Part shown: positions 1,335-45,474 of the stretch, one piece after another | Layout of the letters: each line of letters starts with the position of its first letter | Position numbering within the stretch: position 1 is the stretch's first letter | NCBI RefSeq assembly: GCF_017348835.2 | Contig: NZ_CP071375.1 | Strand: one strand, 5' to 3' | Source: Escherichia coli | GTDB taxonomy: Bacteria > Pseudomonadota > Gammaproteobacteria > Enterobacterales > Enterobacteriaceae | Length of the DNA: 64,000 nucleotides | The notes under the pieces: model-generated | Databases searched by the model: none | The model's input: only the letters and a program-made list of their open reading frames with translations | What the model was told of the DNA's origin: nothing | Made by a program: the position numbers and the translations under genes

Positions 1335-2768
1335 ATGACGCAATCTCGATTGCATGCGGCGCAAAACGCACTAGCAAAACTTCATGAGCACCGGGGTAAC
1401 ACTTTCTATCCCCATTTTCACCTCGCGCCTCCTGCCGGGTGGATGAACGATCCAAACGGCCTGATCTGGTTTAACGATCGTTATCACGCGTTTTATCAAC
1501 ATCACCCGATGAGCGAACACTGGGGGCCAATGCACTGGGGACATGCCACCAGCGACGATATGATCCACTGGCAGCATGAGCCTATTGCGCTAGCGCCAGG
1601 AGACGATAATGACAAAGACGGGTGTTTTTCAGGTAGTGCTGTCGATGACAATGGTGTCCTCTCACTTATCTACACCGGACACGTCTGGCTCGATGGTGCA
1701 GGTAATGACGATGCAATTCGCGAAGTACAATGTCTGGCTACCAGTCGGGATGGTATTCATTTCGAGAAACAGGGTGTGATCCTCACTCCACCAGAAGGAA
1801 TCATGCACTTCCGCGATCCTAAAGTGTGGCGTGAAGCCGACTCATGGTGGATGGTAGTCGGGGCGAAAGACCCAGGCAACACGGGGCAGATCCTGCTTTA
1901 TCGCGGCAGTTCATTACGTGAATGGACTTTCGATCGCGTACTGGCCCACGCTGATGCGGGTGAAAGCTATATGTGGGAATGTCCGGACTTTTTCAGCCTT
2001 GGCGATCAGCATTATCTGATGTTTTCCCCGCAGGGAATGAATGCCGAGGGATACAGTTACCGAAATCGCTTTCAAAGTGGCGTAATACCCGGAATGTGGT
2101 CGCCAGGACGACTTTTTGCACAATCCGGGCATTTTACTGAACTTGATAACGGGCATGACTTTTATGCACCACAAAGCTTTGTAGCGAAGGATGGTCGGCG
2201 TATTGTTATCGGCTGGATGGATATGTGGGAATCGCCAATGCCCTCAAAACGTGAAGGCTGGGCAGGCTGCATGACGCTGGCGCGCGAGCTATCAGAGAGC
2301 AATGGCAAACTCCTACAACGCCCGGTACACGAAGCTGAGTCGTTACGCCAGCAGCATCAATCTATCTCTCCCCGCACAATCAGCAATAAATATGTTTTGC
2401 AGGAAAACGCGCAAGCAGTTGAGATTCAGTTGCAGTGGGCGCTGAAGAACAGTGATGCCGAACATTACGGATTACAGCTCGGCACTGGAATGCGGCTGTA
2501 TATTGATAACCAATCTGAGCGACTTGTTTTGTGGCGGTATTACCCACACGAGAATTTAGACGGCTACCGTAGTATTCCCCTCCCGCAGGGTGAGACGCTC
2601 GCCCTAAGGATATTTATCGATACATCATCCGTGGAAGTATTTATTAACGACGGGGAAGCGGTGATGAGTAGTCGAATCTATCCGCAGCCAGAAGAACGGG
2701 AACTGTCGCTTTATGCCTCCCACGGAGTGGCTGTGGTGCAACATGGAGCACTCTGGCAACTGGGTTAG
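1335..2768 (+). CDS. cscA: Sucrose-6-phosphate hydrolase / invertase (GH32)
   Basis: ORF 1326-2768. WMNDPNGL GH32 motif near the N-terminus. Start moved to the second ATG (MTQSRLH...) which has AGGA 8 nt upstream, giving 477 aa. Confidence 0.9.
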   Translation: MTQSRLHAAQNALAKLHEHRGNTFYPHFHLAPPAGWMNDPNGLIWFNDRYHAFYQHHPMSEHWGPMHWGHATSDDMIHWQHEPIALAPGDDNDKDGCFSGSAVDDNGVLSLIYTGHVWLDGAGNDDAIREVQCLATSRDGIHFEKQGVILTPPEGIMHFRDPKVWREADSWWMVVGAKDPGNTGQILLYRGSSLREWTFDRVLAHADAGESYMWECPDFFSLGDQHYLMFSPQGMNAEGYSYRNRFQSGVIPGMWSPGRLFAQSGHFTELDNGHDFYAPQSFVAKDGRRIVIGWMDMWESPMPSKREGWAGCMTLARELSESNGKLLQRPVHEAESLRQQHQSISPRTISNKYVLQENAQAVEIQLQWALKNSDAEHYGLQLGTGMRLYIDNQSERLVLWRYYPHENLDGYRSIPLPQGETLALRIFIDTSSVEVFINDGEAVMSSRIYPQPEERELSLYASHGVAVVQHGALWQLG

Positions 2769-2775
2769 CATAATA

Positions 2776-3771
2776 TCAGGTGGAACAACGGATCAACAGC
2801 GGGCAAGGGATCCGCGTCACACTTCCCCCTTCACGACCTTCAATAATATGCAATGCAGCTTCCCGCCCGATAATGTCATGTGGAAGCTGAATTGTGGTCA
2901 GCGGCGGTAAAAACAGATGCCCGACGCCAACCAGATTATCAAAGCCCATTACGGCGACATCCTGCGGGATACGTACCCCCTTCGCCAGGAGAACCTGATA
3001 AGCCACAAAGGCTGCGCGATCGTTACCACATATCAGAACATCAAAATCTGGTTTGCCCGATTTGAAGTGGTCATTGAGTAAACTTGCGAGATCGGTGTAG
3101 TGATCATCACCTGTTGCCATGTGAAATTGTTTCACCTCAGCCAGATCTCGTCCAGCATCACGCCAGGCCTGCTCAAATCCCTGCCGACGATACCCTGTTA
3201 CCAACGCACTTTCCGGTAGCCAGAAGCATAACGGTTGACGATAGCCCGCCGCGAGCAAATGCTGTGTTGATTCATATTGTGCAGTGTAATCATCAGGGAT
3301 ATAACTGGGTAACGCTGGGTCATCCGCCACACAGTTCGCCAATACAATATTTTCACCATACAGAGACTCAGGCAGCGTGATATGTCGCAGCCCCATTGTA
3401 GTATAGATAATGCCATCCGGACGGTGGGCAAGCAGCTGACGTGCCGCGCGGGCAGCGTCATCTTCAGAAAAAATATTGATTAAAAAACTATTCCAGCCGA
3501 ACTCGCTGGCGGTTTGCTCAATGGCAAGCAGAATATCAACAGAGAAAGGAGTGGTAGCAGTGTCCTGCGCCAGCACGGCGAGAGTCGACGGCTTACGTCC
3601 TTGAGCGCGCATCTTACGGGCGGAAAGATCAGGAACATAATTCAGGGTCTGGATTGCCTGCAATACGCGGTCACGCGTTGCAGGACGCACAGATTCTGCA
3701 TTATGCATCACCCGGGAGACTGTCATCATCGACACTCCCGCCAGGCGTGCGACATCCTTTAATGAAGCCAT
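2776..3771 (-). CDS. cscR: LacI-family sucrose operon repressor
   Basis: ORF 2776-3957 trimmed to the internal ATG giving MASLKDVARLAGVSMMTVSRV (LacI-type HTH) and a 331-aa product; convergent with cscA. Confidence 0.88.
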   Translation of the reverse strand: MASLKDVARLAGVSMMTVSRVMHNAESVRPATRDRVLQAIQTLNYVPDLSARKMRAQGRKPSTLAVLAQDTATTPFSVDILLAIEQTASEFGWNSFLINIFSEDDAARAARQLLAHRPDGIIYTTMGLRHITLPESLYGENIVLANCVADDPALPSYIPDDYTAQYESTQHLLAAGYRQPLCFWLPESALVTGYRRQGFEQAWRDAGRDLAEVKQFHMATGDDHYTDLASLLNDHFKSGKPDFDVLICGNDRAAFVAYQVLLAKGVRIPQDVAVMGFDNLVGVGHLFLPPLTTIQLPHDIIGREAALHIIEGREGGSVTRIPCPLLIRCST

Positions 3772-41519: not shown

Positions 41520-41726
41520 GAGTACACTACTCTCACTGATCGGGGTTTTCAGGCACACAAATAATAAGTTTATTCGCATCGCGAAGCAAACAGGGGCCAG
41601 CCTGTTGCCGATTTTTCATCCAATGATGCTTTCACCAGGCGGCACTAACCCGGACGTAGACTGTATTACAAAAGCGGCAAAAAGCAGAGACAAAAAACCC
41701 CCGCTTTGCAGCGAGGGTTGGAAATT

Positions 41727-41802
<76 letters not shown>

Positions 41803-41841: not shown

Positions 41842-41917
<76 letters not shown>

Positions 41918-41949: not shown

Positions 41950-41978
41950 ATCATATGAATTCCGCCCGAATGTGTCAA
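41950..41978 (-). promoter_or_regulatory. Stable-RNA-type sigma-70 promoter for the tRNA-Ala pair (TTGACA-17-TATGAT, GC-rich discriminator)
   Basis: Minus strand reads TTGACAcattcgggcggaattcaTATGATgccgcccg; consensus -35, 17-bp spacer and GC-rich discriminator typical of stringently controlled promoters. Confidence 0.65.
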
Positions 41979-42152
41979 CGGCAAATTGCAACGTGTAGTT
42001 TCAATCGCTGAAAAATCAGGCAAATGAACAATTTTGGAAAACCGCTCGCATTCAGTAGTTATTCATGTCACGGTTTCCTGTAAAGTGGTGCTATAAAATG
42101 AACTACTAATAGACCCACATACATTCAGGGAATTGTTATGTTCAAGGAGAGG

Positions 42153-42497
42153 ATGACACCAGATGAACTTGCCAGACTGACCGGCTATAGCCGCCAGACC
42201 ATTAATAAATGGGTACGCAAGGAAGGCTGGACGACGTCACCAAAACCAGGCGTCCAGGGTGGCAAAGCCCGACTGGTTCACGTCAATGAACAGGTTCGTG
42301 AATATATTCGTAATGCTGAACGTCCAGAAGGTCAGGGAGAAGCGCCTGCCCTTTCTGGTGATGCGCCGCTTGAAGTATTGCTGGTGACACTGGCGAAAGA
42401 GATGACGCCAGTTGAACAAAAACAGTTTACATCCTTGCTTCTGCGGGAAGGGATTATCGGATTGTTACAACGCTTAGGGATTCGCGATAGCAAATAA
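42153..42497 (+). CDS. yfeC: Small putative DNA-binding protein (DUF1323, HTH)
   Basis: ORF 42138-42497 trimmed to MTPDELARLTGYSRQTINKWV, 114 aa; paralogous to the adjacent yfeD. Confidence 0.85.
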   Translation: MTPDELARLTGYSRQTINKWVRKEGWTTSPKPGVQGGKARLVHVNEQVREYIRNAERPEGQGEAPALSGDAPLEVLLVTLAKEMTPVEQKQFTSLLLREGIIGLLQRLGIRDSK

Positions 42498-42498
42498 T

Positions 42499-42891
42499 AT
42501 GAAAAGATTACGCAACAAAATGACCACCGAAGAACTGGCTGAATGCCTCGGTGTGGCTAAACAAACTGTTAACCGTTGGATCAGAGAAAAAGGCTGGAAA
42601 ACGGAAAAATTTCCCGGCGTGAAAGGCGGTCGTGCCAGACTTATTCTGGTCGATACGCAAGTTTGCGAGTTTATTCAGAACACGCCAGCCTTCCATAACA
42701 CACCGATGCTTCTGGAAGCCGAAGAACCCCTTGCCGAATACGCACCGGGGATTCGCACTCCTGCTTATCGACAAATCATAAGCGCAATAGACAACATGAC
42801 TCACAGTGAGCAGGAAAAAGTTGCGCAATTTTTGTCACGCGAAGGAATTCGTAATTTCCTGGCTCGTCTCGACATAAATGAATCAGCATAA
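42499..42891 (+). CDS. yfeD: Small putative DNA-binding protein (DUF1323, HTH)
   Basis: 130-aa ORF (MKRLRNKMTTEELAECLGVAKQTVNRWIREKGW...); clear paralogue of yfeC. Confidence 0.85.
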   Translation: MKRLRNKMTTEELAECLGVAKQTVNRWIREKGWKTEKFPGVKGGRARLILVDTQVCEFIQNTPAFHNTPMLLEAEEPLAEYAPGIRTPAYRQIISAIDNMTHSEQEKVAQFLSREGIRNFLARLDINESA

Positions 42892-42894
42892 ATA

Positions 42895-42933
42895 AAAAAC
42901 GGCAGGGGTTTCTCTCCTGCCGTTTGTCTTTTA
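42895..42933. terminator. Bidirectional intrinsic terminator between yfeD and gltX
   Basis: AAAAAACGGCAGG-ggtttctctc-CCTGCCGTTTGTCTTTT hairpin. Confidence 0.75.
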
Positions 42934-42941
42934 TGCGCTAA

Positions 42942-44357
42942 TTACTGCTGATTTTCGCGTTCAGCAATAAAAGCCAGCGCTTTGTTGATACGCTCAATGC
43001 TACGTGTCTTACCGATCGCGTGAACGGTAACATCCAGTGCTGGAGACTGCCCCGCACCGGTTACGGCGACACGCAGCGGCATACCAACTTTACCCATACC
43101 CACTTCCAGCTCATCCGCCGTCGCCTGAATAGCGTGATGAACGTTTTCAGCGGTCCAGTCAGTAATCGCGGCCAGTTTGTCACGAACCACTTCCAGCGGC
43201 TGACGCGCTACCGGACGCAGATGTTTTTTCGCGGCGTCGGCATCGAACTCTGCAAAATCTTCGTAGAAATAACGGCAGCTCTGTGCCATCTCTTTCAGCG
43301 TCTTGCAGCGTTCGCCCAGCAGTTTCACCAGATCAGCCAGCTGCGGGCCGTTACGGGTATCGATATTTTCCTGCTCAATGTGCCACTGTAAGTGAGTAGC
43401 AACATACTCCGGCGGCAGCGCGTTAATGTAGTGATGGTTCAGCCACAGCAGCTTGTCGGTGTTGAACGCACTGGCAGATTTGCTGACGGCATTCAGGGTG
43501 AAGTATTTGATCATCTCTTCACGAGTGAAGATTTCCTGATCGCCGTGGGACCAGCCCAGACGCACCAGATAGTTCAGCAGTGCTTCTGGCAAATAACCGT
43601 CGTCACGATACTGCATTACGCTGACCGCCCCGTGACGTTTGGACAGTTTTTTACCGTCATCGCCGTTGATCATAGAAACGTGCGCGTAAACCGGCACCGG
43701 CGCTTTCAGGGCCTTAAGAATGTTGATCTGGCGTGGCGTGTTGTTGATATGGTCTTCGCCACGGATAACGTGGGTGATTTCCATATCCCAGTCATCGACA
43801 ACCACACAGAAGTTATAGGTTGGGGAACCATCGGTACGGCGGATAATAAGATCGTCCAGTTCCTGGTTGCTGAACTCGATCGGACCACGGATCTGATCGT
43901 CAAAAACAACAGAACCTTCCTGCGGGTTAGCAAAACGTACGACACACGGCTCATCATCAGCGTGATGCTCATGACTGTGGCGGCAGCGACCGTCATAACG
44001 CGGCTTCTCACCTTTCGCCATTTGCTCTTCGCGCAGCGCTTCCAGGCGCTCTTTAGAGCAATAGCATTTATAAGCTGTGCCCTCTTCCAGCATCTGATCG
44101 ATCACCGCGTTGTAGCGATCAAAACGTTTGGTCTGGAAGTACGGACCTTCATCCCACTCCAGGCTCAGCCAGTTCATGCCATCCATAATGGCTTCGATAG
44201 CTTCCGGCGTGGAACGCTCAAGATCGGTGTCTTCAATACGCAGCACGAACTCACCGCCGTGATTACGTGCAAAAAGCCAGGAGTAAAGAGCAGTACGCGC
44301 GCCGCCAACGTGCAGATAGCCTGTTGGGCTTGGCGCGAAGCGAGTTTTGATTTTCAT
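42942..44357 (-). CDS. gltX: Glutamyl-tRNA synthetase
   Basis: 471-aa ORF with class I aaRS HIGH (…[13 protein letters not shown]…) and KMSKS (KLSKR) motifs. Confidence 0.95.
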
Positions 44358-45132: not shown

Positions 45133-45474
45133 ATGGCCACTATCTCTTCAACTTCAATTCCTTCCATACAAACACAGAGTAGTAACAGGGCATCACAAGG
45201 TAGCGATGTTGCTTCACAAATCGCGCGGATAAGTCAGCAAATCATCAAACTCACTCAACAAATTAAAGAGATTGTAGACACTAGCGGCAGTGCTGAAGAC
45301 AAGCAAAAACAGGCCGAATTGATTCAACAGCAAATCACCCTACTGGAAACACAACTGGCGCAGTTGCAGAGACAGCAGGCAGAAAAGGCGCAGGAGAAAG
45401 AGCAGCGTTTGTCTCTGAATGTATCCCTTCTAAATCCTGTTGAAAATACGACTCATATCGATATCTATATCTGA
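45133..45474 (+). CDS. Small coiled-coil protein, FlxA-like family (113 aa)
   Basis: ATG preceded by GAGGA at about 8 nt; Ser/Thr/Gln-rich N-terminus, central Q/K/E-rich heptad coiled coil (…[35 protein letters not shown]…) and C-terminal …THIDIYI, resembling FlxA-type proteins. The 3' end overlaps the yfeR stop by 10 nt. Family assignment is from memory. Confidence 0.6.

Follow-up and report, generated by a model that had tools for sequence, protein, structure and literature searches.

The yfeC-yfeD locus of Escherichia coli: a conserved pair of paralogous winged helix-turn-helix genes restricted to Enterobacteriaceae

The yfeC-yfeD pair was analyzed in a 64,000-nt stretch of E. coli DNA (contig NZ_CP071375.1), hereafter the window, whose positions are obtained by subtracting 2,476,314 from those of NC_000913.3. 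The RefSeq-annotated yfeC open reading frame (ORF) occupies 42153..42497 on the plus strand (114 aa plus stop), and the yfeD ORF occupies 42499..42891 on the same strand (130 aa plus stop). The junction at 42495..42501 on the plus strand reads TAA-T-ATG, with a gap of exactly 1 nt, and both ORFs were found where a first, sequence-only reading of the DNA had placed them. Upstream of the pair, the two tRNA-Ala(GGC) genes alaX and alaW lie on the minus strand at 41727-41802 and 41842-41917, respectively, according to ARAGORN and the K-12 annotation. Downstream, gltX (glutamate--tRNA ligase; ORF and RefSeq annotation) is located at 42942..44357 on the minus strand, convergent to yfeD. The gene order around the pair in the E. 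coli chromosome is pdeA(yfeA)–alaX–alaW–yfeC–yfeD–gltX–valUXY–lysV–xapR. The G+C content of yfeC and yfeD is slightly low (46-48%, compared with 49-55% for the flanks).

The pair had been described as flanked by terminators on both the tRNA and the gltX sides. On the gltX side this was borne out by a hairpin at 42897-42925, for which the plus-strand terminator scan returned a 12-bp stem with 7 G-C pairs, and direct reading of both flanks revealed a T-run past the stem on either strand. The hairpin is therefore able to serve the convergent genes yfeD (plus strand) and gltX (minus strand) and is likely a bidirectional intrinsic terminator. On the tRNA side, the flanking element is instead the alaWX promoter, divergent from yfeC, at 41978..41950 on the minus strand (TTGACA-17-TATGAT with a G+C-rich discriminator; 11/12 matches in the scan), which showed strong conservation between genera in the intergenic alignment. 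The tRNA terminator (41719..41696, minus strand) is on the far side of alaX and alaW relative to yfeC.

The similarity of the two ORFs, previously read as a tandem duplication, was confirmed over the whole length of the proteins. BLASTP aligned YfeC and YfeD with 46/124 identities (37%), 54% positives, and E = 1e-26, and both proteins matched a single Pfam family, PF07037 ('YfeC-like', formerly DUF1323), over profile positions 1-122, with 173 bits for YfeC and 205 bits for YfeD (122-position model; gathering cut-off, 22.9 bits). The resemblance is far beyond chance. The two-part architecture of PF07037 is present in the pair, comprising a helix-turn-helix (HTH) with a W..W.T...GV.GG.A wing and a C-terminal motif E...R-E-G...R-L. 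Among 26 sequences, the near-invariant columns were M8, E12, L13, A14, G18, Q22, T23, N25, W27, W33, G40, G43, G44, A46, and V55, together with E104, R114, E115, G116, R123, and L124 in the C-terminal part. The C-terminal motif reads MT..EQ..L..LL.REGI.G.L.RLGI, of which REGI..L.RLGI is common to the YfeC and YfeD groups. The pair are members, indeed founders, of PF07037 (E. coli K-12 YfeC b2398 and YfeD b2399). Compared with K-12, YfeC was 100% identical and YfeD 93% identical, and annotation and synteny were alike; however, the present strain carries a non-K-12 allele of the yfeD 3' half, with 9 amino-acid differences.

The distribution of the pair was surveyed in one genome per species (GTDB) using conserved peptides of the family, which gave 236 confirmed matches, and the best 80 loci were kept. 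The best 80 of the 236 matches were all from Enterobacteriaceae, including Escherichia, Salmonella, Citrobacter, Enterobacter, Klebsiella, Raoultella, Kluyvera, and Kosakonia, as well as Leclercia, Lelliottia, Trabulsiella, Yokenella, Pluralibacter, Phytobacter, and others. A yfeC orthologue was located directly upstream of yfeD and downstream of the tRNA-Ala genes and pdeA in 80/80 of these best loci. Whether the pair is always duplicated across Enterobacteriaceae had been proposed as a check, and both genes were present in 80/80 species loci (best 80 of 236). Almost all of the best 80 of 236 had gltX next, on the other strand; in the exceptions, mainly Kosakonia and relatives, gltX lay outside the 3 kb of flank covered. 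Franconibacter, among the most distant members, showed the identical arrangement. The distance between the yfeC stop and the yfeD start was -20 to +9 nt in 79 of the best 80 (of 236) loci, with a mode of 1 nt (48/80), and yfeC was disrupted in the single outlier (L075, +50 nt). Within the species, the 1,061-bp region was present in 5,425/5,426 complete E. coli genomes, where synteny and annotation were likewise unchanged.

Mean pairwise identity was 74% among YfeC orthologues, 57% among YfeD orthologues, and 39% between YfeC and YfeD. No protein had its nearest neighbor in the opposite paralogue group, giving two clean orthologue groups. This separation indicates a single old duplication that would have preceded the radiation of the family, after which YfeD appears to have evolved faster; the dN of YfeD was ~1.6-2.6 times that of YfeC. 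The dN/dS values were 0.03-0.22 for both genes (0.07-0.22 for yfeC against other genera), thereby indicating purifying selection on yfeC and yfeD. Only 125 matches at E <= 1e-3 came out of an exhaustive HMMER search through 1.84 billion representative proteins. The full-length matches that were traced belonged to Entomohabitans, Scandinavium, Cedecea, Atlantibacter, Franconibacter, Cronobacter, and Klebsiella, all of which are Enterobacteriaceae. The remaining matches were fragments or unrelated multi-HTH repeat proteins aligned over the HTH only; the latter (e.g., P0161, 1312 aa, 14 stretches) were rejected as family members because they share only a generic HTH segment. No phage homologues of YfeC or YfeD were found. 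Record sizes and non-mobilizable typing suggest that the 13 'plasmid' matches are chromosomes under a wrong label or pieces of chromosome. Because phage homologues were not found and the plasmid matches were unconvincing, YfeC and YfeD are a lineage-restricted core-genome family of Enterobacteriaceae and not mobile DNA. An origin from a mobile element or genomic island was also rejected, given the barely low G+C content and the lack of an integrase, phage matches, or convincing plasmid matches.

The spacer between alaW and yfeC was 234-239 bp in 79/80 loci (best 80 of 236) and aligned well. Its conserved elements are the alaWX promoter, an A/T-rich block upstream of that promoter, a palindrome, and a promoter-like block. 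The last of these, GTCAC-NN-TTTC-NNN-TAAA-NN-GRTG-c-TATAAA at 42067-42097, was highly conserved in the Enterobacteriaceae intergenic alignment. We infer from the alignment that this block is a candidate yfeCD promoter (42067..42099, plus strand) of the extended -10 type, with TG-c-TATAAA at 42089-42097, and that the imperfect dyad over its -35/spacer region is a candidate operator. A simple -35/-10 promoter scan did not call the candidate yfeCD promoter. Covariation of the dyad half-sites was apparent in two clades only and is not claimed. The palindrome, GCGAG-N4-6-CTCGC, was found in 27/80 species loci (best 80 of 236) and was degenerate in Escherichia, Salmonella, and Citrobacter. Its position in the window is 42033..42050 on the plus strand, where other genera have TTGCGAG-N5-CTCGCA and E. 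coli keeps only the right arm CTCGCA (42045-42050) intact; an intact GCGAG-N4-6-CTCGC palindrome was absent from the window. At the yfeC-yfeD junction, no Shine-Dalgarno sequence for yfeD was evident. Together with the 1-nt gap, this suggests that translation of the two genes is likely coupled.

Five in-frame codons, encoding MFKER, precede the annotated yfeC start at 42138..42152 on the plus strand. The yfeC ORF opens at ATG 42138, giving a product of 119 aa. The upstream pattern ATG-[TAC]TC-AAG-GAR-(AGG/CGG/CGA/CGT/AGA)-ATG was present in nearly all non-redundant variants across genera. The second codon of this lead encodes F/I/L, and the changes in the Glu codon (GAG, GAA) and in the Arg codon were synonymous; in two cryptic-Escherichia loci (L004 and L005), the Arg codon was replaced by ATG. 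Several genera have in-frame stops just before the equivalent of ATG 42138, and a Shine-Dalgarno-like AGGGA/CAGGAA is located 6 nt 5' of the upstream ATG. In addition, the lead peptide of the 119-aa YfeC resembles the seven residues preceding the conserved Met of YfeD. The coding signature, namely, synonymous codon changes in a kept frame, suggests that YfeC probably starts at 42138 as a 119-aa product and that the annotation is probably 5 codons short. Alternatively, the conserved AAGGA could be kept as the Shine-Dalgarno sequence of the annotated yfeC start.

The fold was predicted from an alignment-based AlphaFold2 model of YfeD (mean pLDDT, 79), which replaced a single-sequence AlphaFold2 model of YfeC that was unusable (pLDDT, 52). 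In the YfeD model, residues 7-61 form strand-helix-helix-strand-strand-helix, the arrangement of a winged HTH, residues 62-87 form a low-confidence linker (pLDDT, 50-69), and residues 88-123 form a two-helix hairpin (block-mean pLDDT, 87-93 over 91-120). In YfeC, the winged HTH spans roughly residues 1-55, and the conserved hairpin of C-terminal helices spans roughly residues 72-109. Searching the PDB by sequence gave no solved relative. The structural matches of the YfeD fold were the pSK1 Par DNA-binding domain, BldC, and the terminase small-subunit HTH, with looser matches to RacA (56 residues, 3.4 A), the Mu repressor domain, TorI, and other excisionases; Foldseek returned only generic, non-significant winged-helix matches. 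The N-terminal part of YfeC and YfeD is thus predicted to be an excisionase/MerR-type winged HTH. The HTH_17 and TIGR01764 sequence signals point the same way, with YfeD above the HTH_17 threshold, as does the SUPERFAMILY assignment quoted in Gao et al. (PMC8464067). The C-terminal hairpin holds the most conserved motif beyond the HTH (E104, R114-E115-G116, and R123-L124). From this conservation, and because a hairpin of 35 residues is improbable as a stable unit on its own, we infer that it serves as an oligomerization module. The hairpin is common to both paralogues and would therefore allow homodimers and possibly YfeC-YfeD heteromers.

The closest known systems with this type of fold are the excisionases and the MerR-like proteins. 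The winged-helix relatives among excisionases and recombination directionality factors (RDF) include mycobacteriophage Pukovnik Xis (4j2n), TorI (1z4h), an AlpA-type protein (8c3t), Tn916 Xis (1y6u), and the TIGR01764 family. In contrast to these, YfeC and YfeD have an additional linker and the conserved C-terminal hairpin, and they are encoded in the core chromosome with no partner integrase, att site, mobile element, or phage homologues. The TIGR01764 scores of 27.5 bits for YfeD and 18.7 bits for YfeC were below the cut-off of 28.8. The neighbors in the best 80 of 236 species loci were pdeA, alaX, alaW, and gltX and not those of a mobile element, and yfeC is on the promoter (5') side of alaW, whereas elements integrate at the 3' end. 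The MerR-type winged HTH is shared with BldC (6amk), RacA (5i41), and pSK1 Par (8csh), and an N-terminal MerR-type winged HTH, as in the MerR family, was indeed found. However, the MerR_1 scores were 12.3-12.6 bits against a cut-off of 21.6, and the PF00376 MerR model gave no reported match. Unlike MerR proper, YfeD as modeled lacks a long antiparallel coiled-coil helix for dimerization immediately behind the wing, has no effector-binding domain, and contains nothing further beyond the short hairpin. The RefSeq label 'MerR family' for yfeD is therefore a fold-level label and not a statement of membership. Another trait in common with RacA and Par is a separate helical region behind the HTH, which could serve multimerization. 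In function, the two proteins bear most resemblance to small winged-HTH proteins whose multimerization region is a distinct part, such as RacA and pSK1 Par.

The allele difference from K-12 forms a patch of ~330 bp, from 42705 to ~43030, covering the yfeD 3' half, the terminator, and the final ~90 nt of gltX. The window differed from K-12 by 11-26% per 100 nt inside the patch and by 0-2% everywhere else. At 42700-42895 (196 nt), 5,425 complete E. coli genomes formed two classes, and few genomes lay in between: identity to the window was at least 95% in 2,198 genomes, 90-95% in 44 genomes, and 80-90% (K-12-like, ~80.6%) in 3,183 genomes, so that the two allele classes account for roughly 40% and 59%. 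An equal-length piece of yfeC showed at least 95% identity in essentially all complete E. coli genomes. The K-12 allele had ~94% identity to cryptic Escherichia clades, which is a normal level. The window allele had ~85% identity to K-12, E. albertii, and the cryptic clades alike and 94.5% identity to Escherichia sp. MOD1-EC7003. Because it is equally far from the former three and close to the latter, the window allele is either an old haplotype or an import from a divergent lineage. The nine YfeD residues changed by the allele are all in the linker and the C-terminal hairpin.

The genes are named 'YfeC-like transcriptional regulator' (yfeC) and 'MerR family transcriptional regulator' (yfeD) in RefSeq and 'DNA-binding transcriptional dual regulator YfeC' and 'putative DNA-binding transcriptional regulator YfeD' in K-12. 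Gao et al. (2021) reported in vivo binding by ChIP-exo at 50 sites for YfeC-8myc and at least 36 sites for YfeD-8myc (PMC8464067). Along with the full-length paralogy, the common Pfam family, the predicted fold, and the occurrence of the pair in 80/80 species loci (best 80 of 236), these data support the reading of the ORFs as a tandem duplication of a small HTH DNA-binding protein. The description 'unknown function' is out of date, since YfeC carries a dual-regulator annotation, 50 ChIP-exo sites are on record for it, and phenotypes of its deletion have been reported. Missing expression or a predicted fold with no DNA-binding character had been named as evidence that would speak against this reading; neither applies, as both genes show expression and their fold is predicted to be of a DNA-binding kind. 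In the same study, the yfeC deletion strain showed 205 differentially expressed genes, and 16/20 directly bound genes were repressed by YfeC (PMC8464067). The literature on DUF1323, PF07037, and 'YfeC-like' yielded no structural or mechanistic study. Deletion of yfeC altered extracellular DNA release, according to a citation within PMC8464067, and reduced small-intestinal colonization and lethality in neonatal rats infected with a K1 neonatal-meningitis strain (PMC5847654), and LEE transcription was unaffected by the deletion in EHEC (PMC11508082). The genes, their paralogy, the family, and the DNA binding were thus already on record, and the sequence-only reading was correct but ordinary. The fixed synteny, the two orthologue groups, the purifying selection, the Enterobacteriaceae-only full-length family, and the modeled fold are new here.

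The published data were also considered with regard to autoregulation. In the yfeC deletion, yfeD mRNA increased 20-fold (log2 4.33, padj 5e-133; PMC8464067). The deletion construct is undescribed in that paper, and the increase could therefore have arisen from polarity or read-through in the construct. The coordinates of the published ChIP-exo table refer to NC_000913.2 and were converted for mapping to the window. The peak labelled 'yfeC' (v2 2516052-2516085) corresponds to approximately 41715-41748, that is, to the alaX 3' end and terminator. It is off the yfeC promoter and was rejected as evidence of autoregulation.

Taken together, the account that we favor, with reasonable confidence, is that yfeC and yfeD make up a coupled operon, that the two winged-HTH regulators encoded by these paralogues oligomerize through their shared C-terminal hairpin, and that YfeC is chiefly a repressor, probably of its own expression too. 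Our confidence is higher for DNA-binding regulators as such and lower for heteromers and autorepression. According to this account, the two-gene operon, fixed in the Enterobacteriaceae chromosome, would encode two small transcription factors. The N-terminal winged HTH of each would contact DNA and would be followed by a flexible linker and the two-helix hairpin, which may act as the oligomerization module for homodimers and possibly YfeC-YfeD heteromers. Transcription would start from the extended -10 promoter ~45-60 nt 5' of yfeC and would end at the hairpin shared with gltX, and yfeC and yfeD would be translated in a coupled fashion. Repression would be the main activity of YfeC at its few dozen sites in the chromosome and would probably extend to its own operon. 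Of this account, the paralogy, the fold class, the conserved anatomy of the operon, purifying selection, and, from published work, in vivo DNA binding are shown. Counting against it are the imperfect dyad of the E. coli yfeCD promoter, the position of the 'yfeC' peak at alaX, the possible construct effect on yfeD, the weak published YfeC motif, the 40% of YfeC sites that are intragenic, and the lack of a shared motif among 10 YfeC sites.

A different explanation, which we consider unlikely, is that YfeC and YfeD are architectural, nucleoid-associated, or recombination-accessory binders resembling Xis, BldC, or RacA, which coat or bend DNA cooperatively with low specificity, so that the regulon would be largely indirect or a ChIP artefact. 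The best structural matches (excisionases, BldC, RacA, pSK1 Par, and the terminase small-subunit HTH) bind cooperatively or architecturally, which is consistent with this explanation. The published YfeC motif is weak, consisting of TTC-rich inverted repeats (E 7e-10), and 40% of the YfeC sites are intragenic (PMC8464067). In our re-derivation from 10 published sites, no 7-mer occurred in at least three sites and no convincing dyad was found, so that these 10 sites lacked a common motif. Moreover, the peaks of YfeC, YfeD, and the unrelated YciT coincide at sfsB, suggesting a hyper-ChIPable locus, and the 'yfeC' peak falls on a tRNA gene. However, the sites are few (~36-50) and not hundreds, and the strongest YfeC peak, at chaB-chaC, is very sharp (signal/noise 2057; PMC8464067). 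The yfeC deletion also caused a defined transcriptome change with derepression of 16/20 bound genes, and an integrase, an att site, and a mobile context are all lacking.

An extended form of the account, in which an obligately co-expressed, Enterobacteriaceae-specific heteromeric paralogue switch represses its own extended -10 promoter through the conserved dyad at 42067-42090, and in which the deep dimorphism of the yfeD 3' half (linker plus hairpin) reflects long-term balancing selection, or else repeated import, at the surface that contacts the partner, is speculative, and we give it somewhat less credence than the architectural explanation. A related possibility, which we regard as more doubtful again, is that YfeD mainly modulates YfeC, or the reverse, with a heterodimer formed through the hairpin titrating or retargeting the partner, so that the pair is a single regulatory switch. 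This would fit the REGI..L.RLGI motif in both groups, the obligatory co-expression from a coupled operon in all genera, the ~1.6-2.6 times faster dN of YfeD, and the retention of both paralogues in nearly every genome since the duplication. Against it, YfeD retains all the invariant HTH residues and has ChIP-exo peaks of its own, largely unlike those of YfeC. Finally, a type II toxin-antitoxin pair, listed as new and of high confidence by RASTA-Bacteria (PMC2374986), repeated in PMC5847654, and in keeping with two small, adjacent, co-transcribed genes with a 1-nt gap, an HTH in one or both, and possible autoregulation, is very improbable and close to refuted, as the two partners are paralogues (37% identity) that share one DNA-binding architecture, no toxin family was above threshold in Pfam, NCBIfam, or PADLOC (YdaS_toxin was sub-threshold, 14-19 bits against a cut-off of 30, over the HTH segment only), the locus is chromosomal and fixed in every species examined and neither patchy nor mobile, and yfeC single deletions were viable in several studies.

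The toxin-antitoxin label of the pair, which is still repeated in the literature, is therefore unfounded. This correction and three others, namely, the lineage restriction, the MerR name, and the yfeC start, are modest gains that are useful for the design of experiments on these under-studied regulators. The family has been retained as a coupled pair at a single locus since its origin, which argues for paralogues that work together.

The true start of yfeC (window 42153-42497, + strand) probably lies five codons upstream of the annotated position 42153, with the additional codons at window 42138-42152. In the upstream sequence comparison, the ATG and the codons that follow it (MF/I/L-K-E-R) were kept across genera with synonymous variation, and the Arg codon was replaced by ATG in two cryptic-Escherichia loci. 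If the upstream ATG is the start codon, YfeC would be a 119-amino-acid protein. Upstream of the putative yfeC promoter, window 42033-42050 and the equivalent positions in loci L024 to L081 of the Enterobacteriaceae species set are the site of a palindrome, TTGCGAG-N5-CTCGCA. The palindrome was intact in 27 of the 80 species loci, and its left arm was decayed in Escherichia, Salmonella, and Citrobacter.

In the species representative Escherichia sp. MOD1-EC7003 (L002), an internal segment of about 234 bp is deleted from yfeC, at about 2917-2903 of that locus and equivalent to window 42167-42400. Because the deletion removes most of the HTH domain of yfeC and leaves yfeD intact, L002 is a naturally yfeC-deficient lineage. 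In Enterobacter sp. BIGb0383 (L068), three family genes are arranged in tandem at 2259-3381, with two yfeD-like copies (2609-2986 and 3001-3381) alongside yfeC, so the locus has undergone a further duplication in at least one lineage.

A divergent patch of about 330 bp was observed at window 42705-43030, extending from the 3' half of yfeD through the terminator it shares with gltX into the final ~90 nt of the latter gene. Differences from K-12 within the patch amounted to 11 to 26% per 100 nt, compared with 0 to 2% in the flanks. Among 5,425 complete E. coli genomes, this segment was dimorphic: 2,198 genomes showed at least 95% identity to the window and 3,183 showed 80 to 90% identity, with only 44 intermediates. 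Since the window's allele is alike in its identity (~85%) to K-12, to E. albertii, and to the cryptic clades, the haplotype is either old or imported. The allele causes only nine amino acid changes in YfeD.

Among the matches from the HMMER scan of representative proteins, P0161, P0171, and similar proteins are 300 to 1,300 amino acids long and are built of 3 to 14 tandem HTH units. They match the HTH segment of YfeD with E values down to 1e-12 and simultaneously match dozens of HTH Pfam families.

The lysV-xapR spacer is 452 bp long in the window versus 265 bp in K-12, and only the first ~54 nt could be aligned. It contains an ORF of 113 amino acids (window 45133-45474, + strand; Pfam FlxA-like PF14282, 52 bits), which was absent from K-12 in the spacer comparison. 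In Franconibacter, an unannotated gene of 111 to 114 amino acids occupies the equivalent position.

In the published ChIP-exo lists (Gao et al. 2021, PMC8464067), a peak at the start of sfsB (NC_000913.2 3332882-3332983; about 2860-2962 in locus L085) is common to YfeC, YfeD, and a protein unrelated to them, YciT. In the YfeC list, the peak attributed to yfeC itself maps to the 3' end of alaX, a tRNA gene. These two positions look like hyper-ChIPable sites, and this appearance calls for caution over the published regulons.
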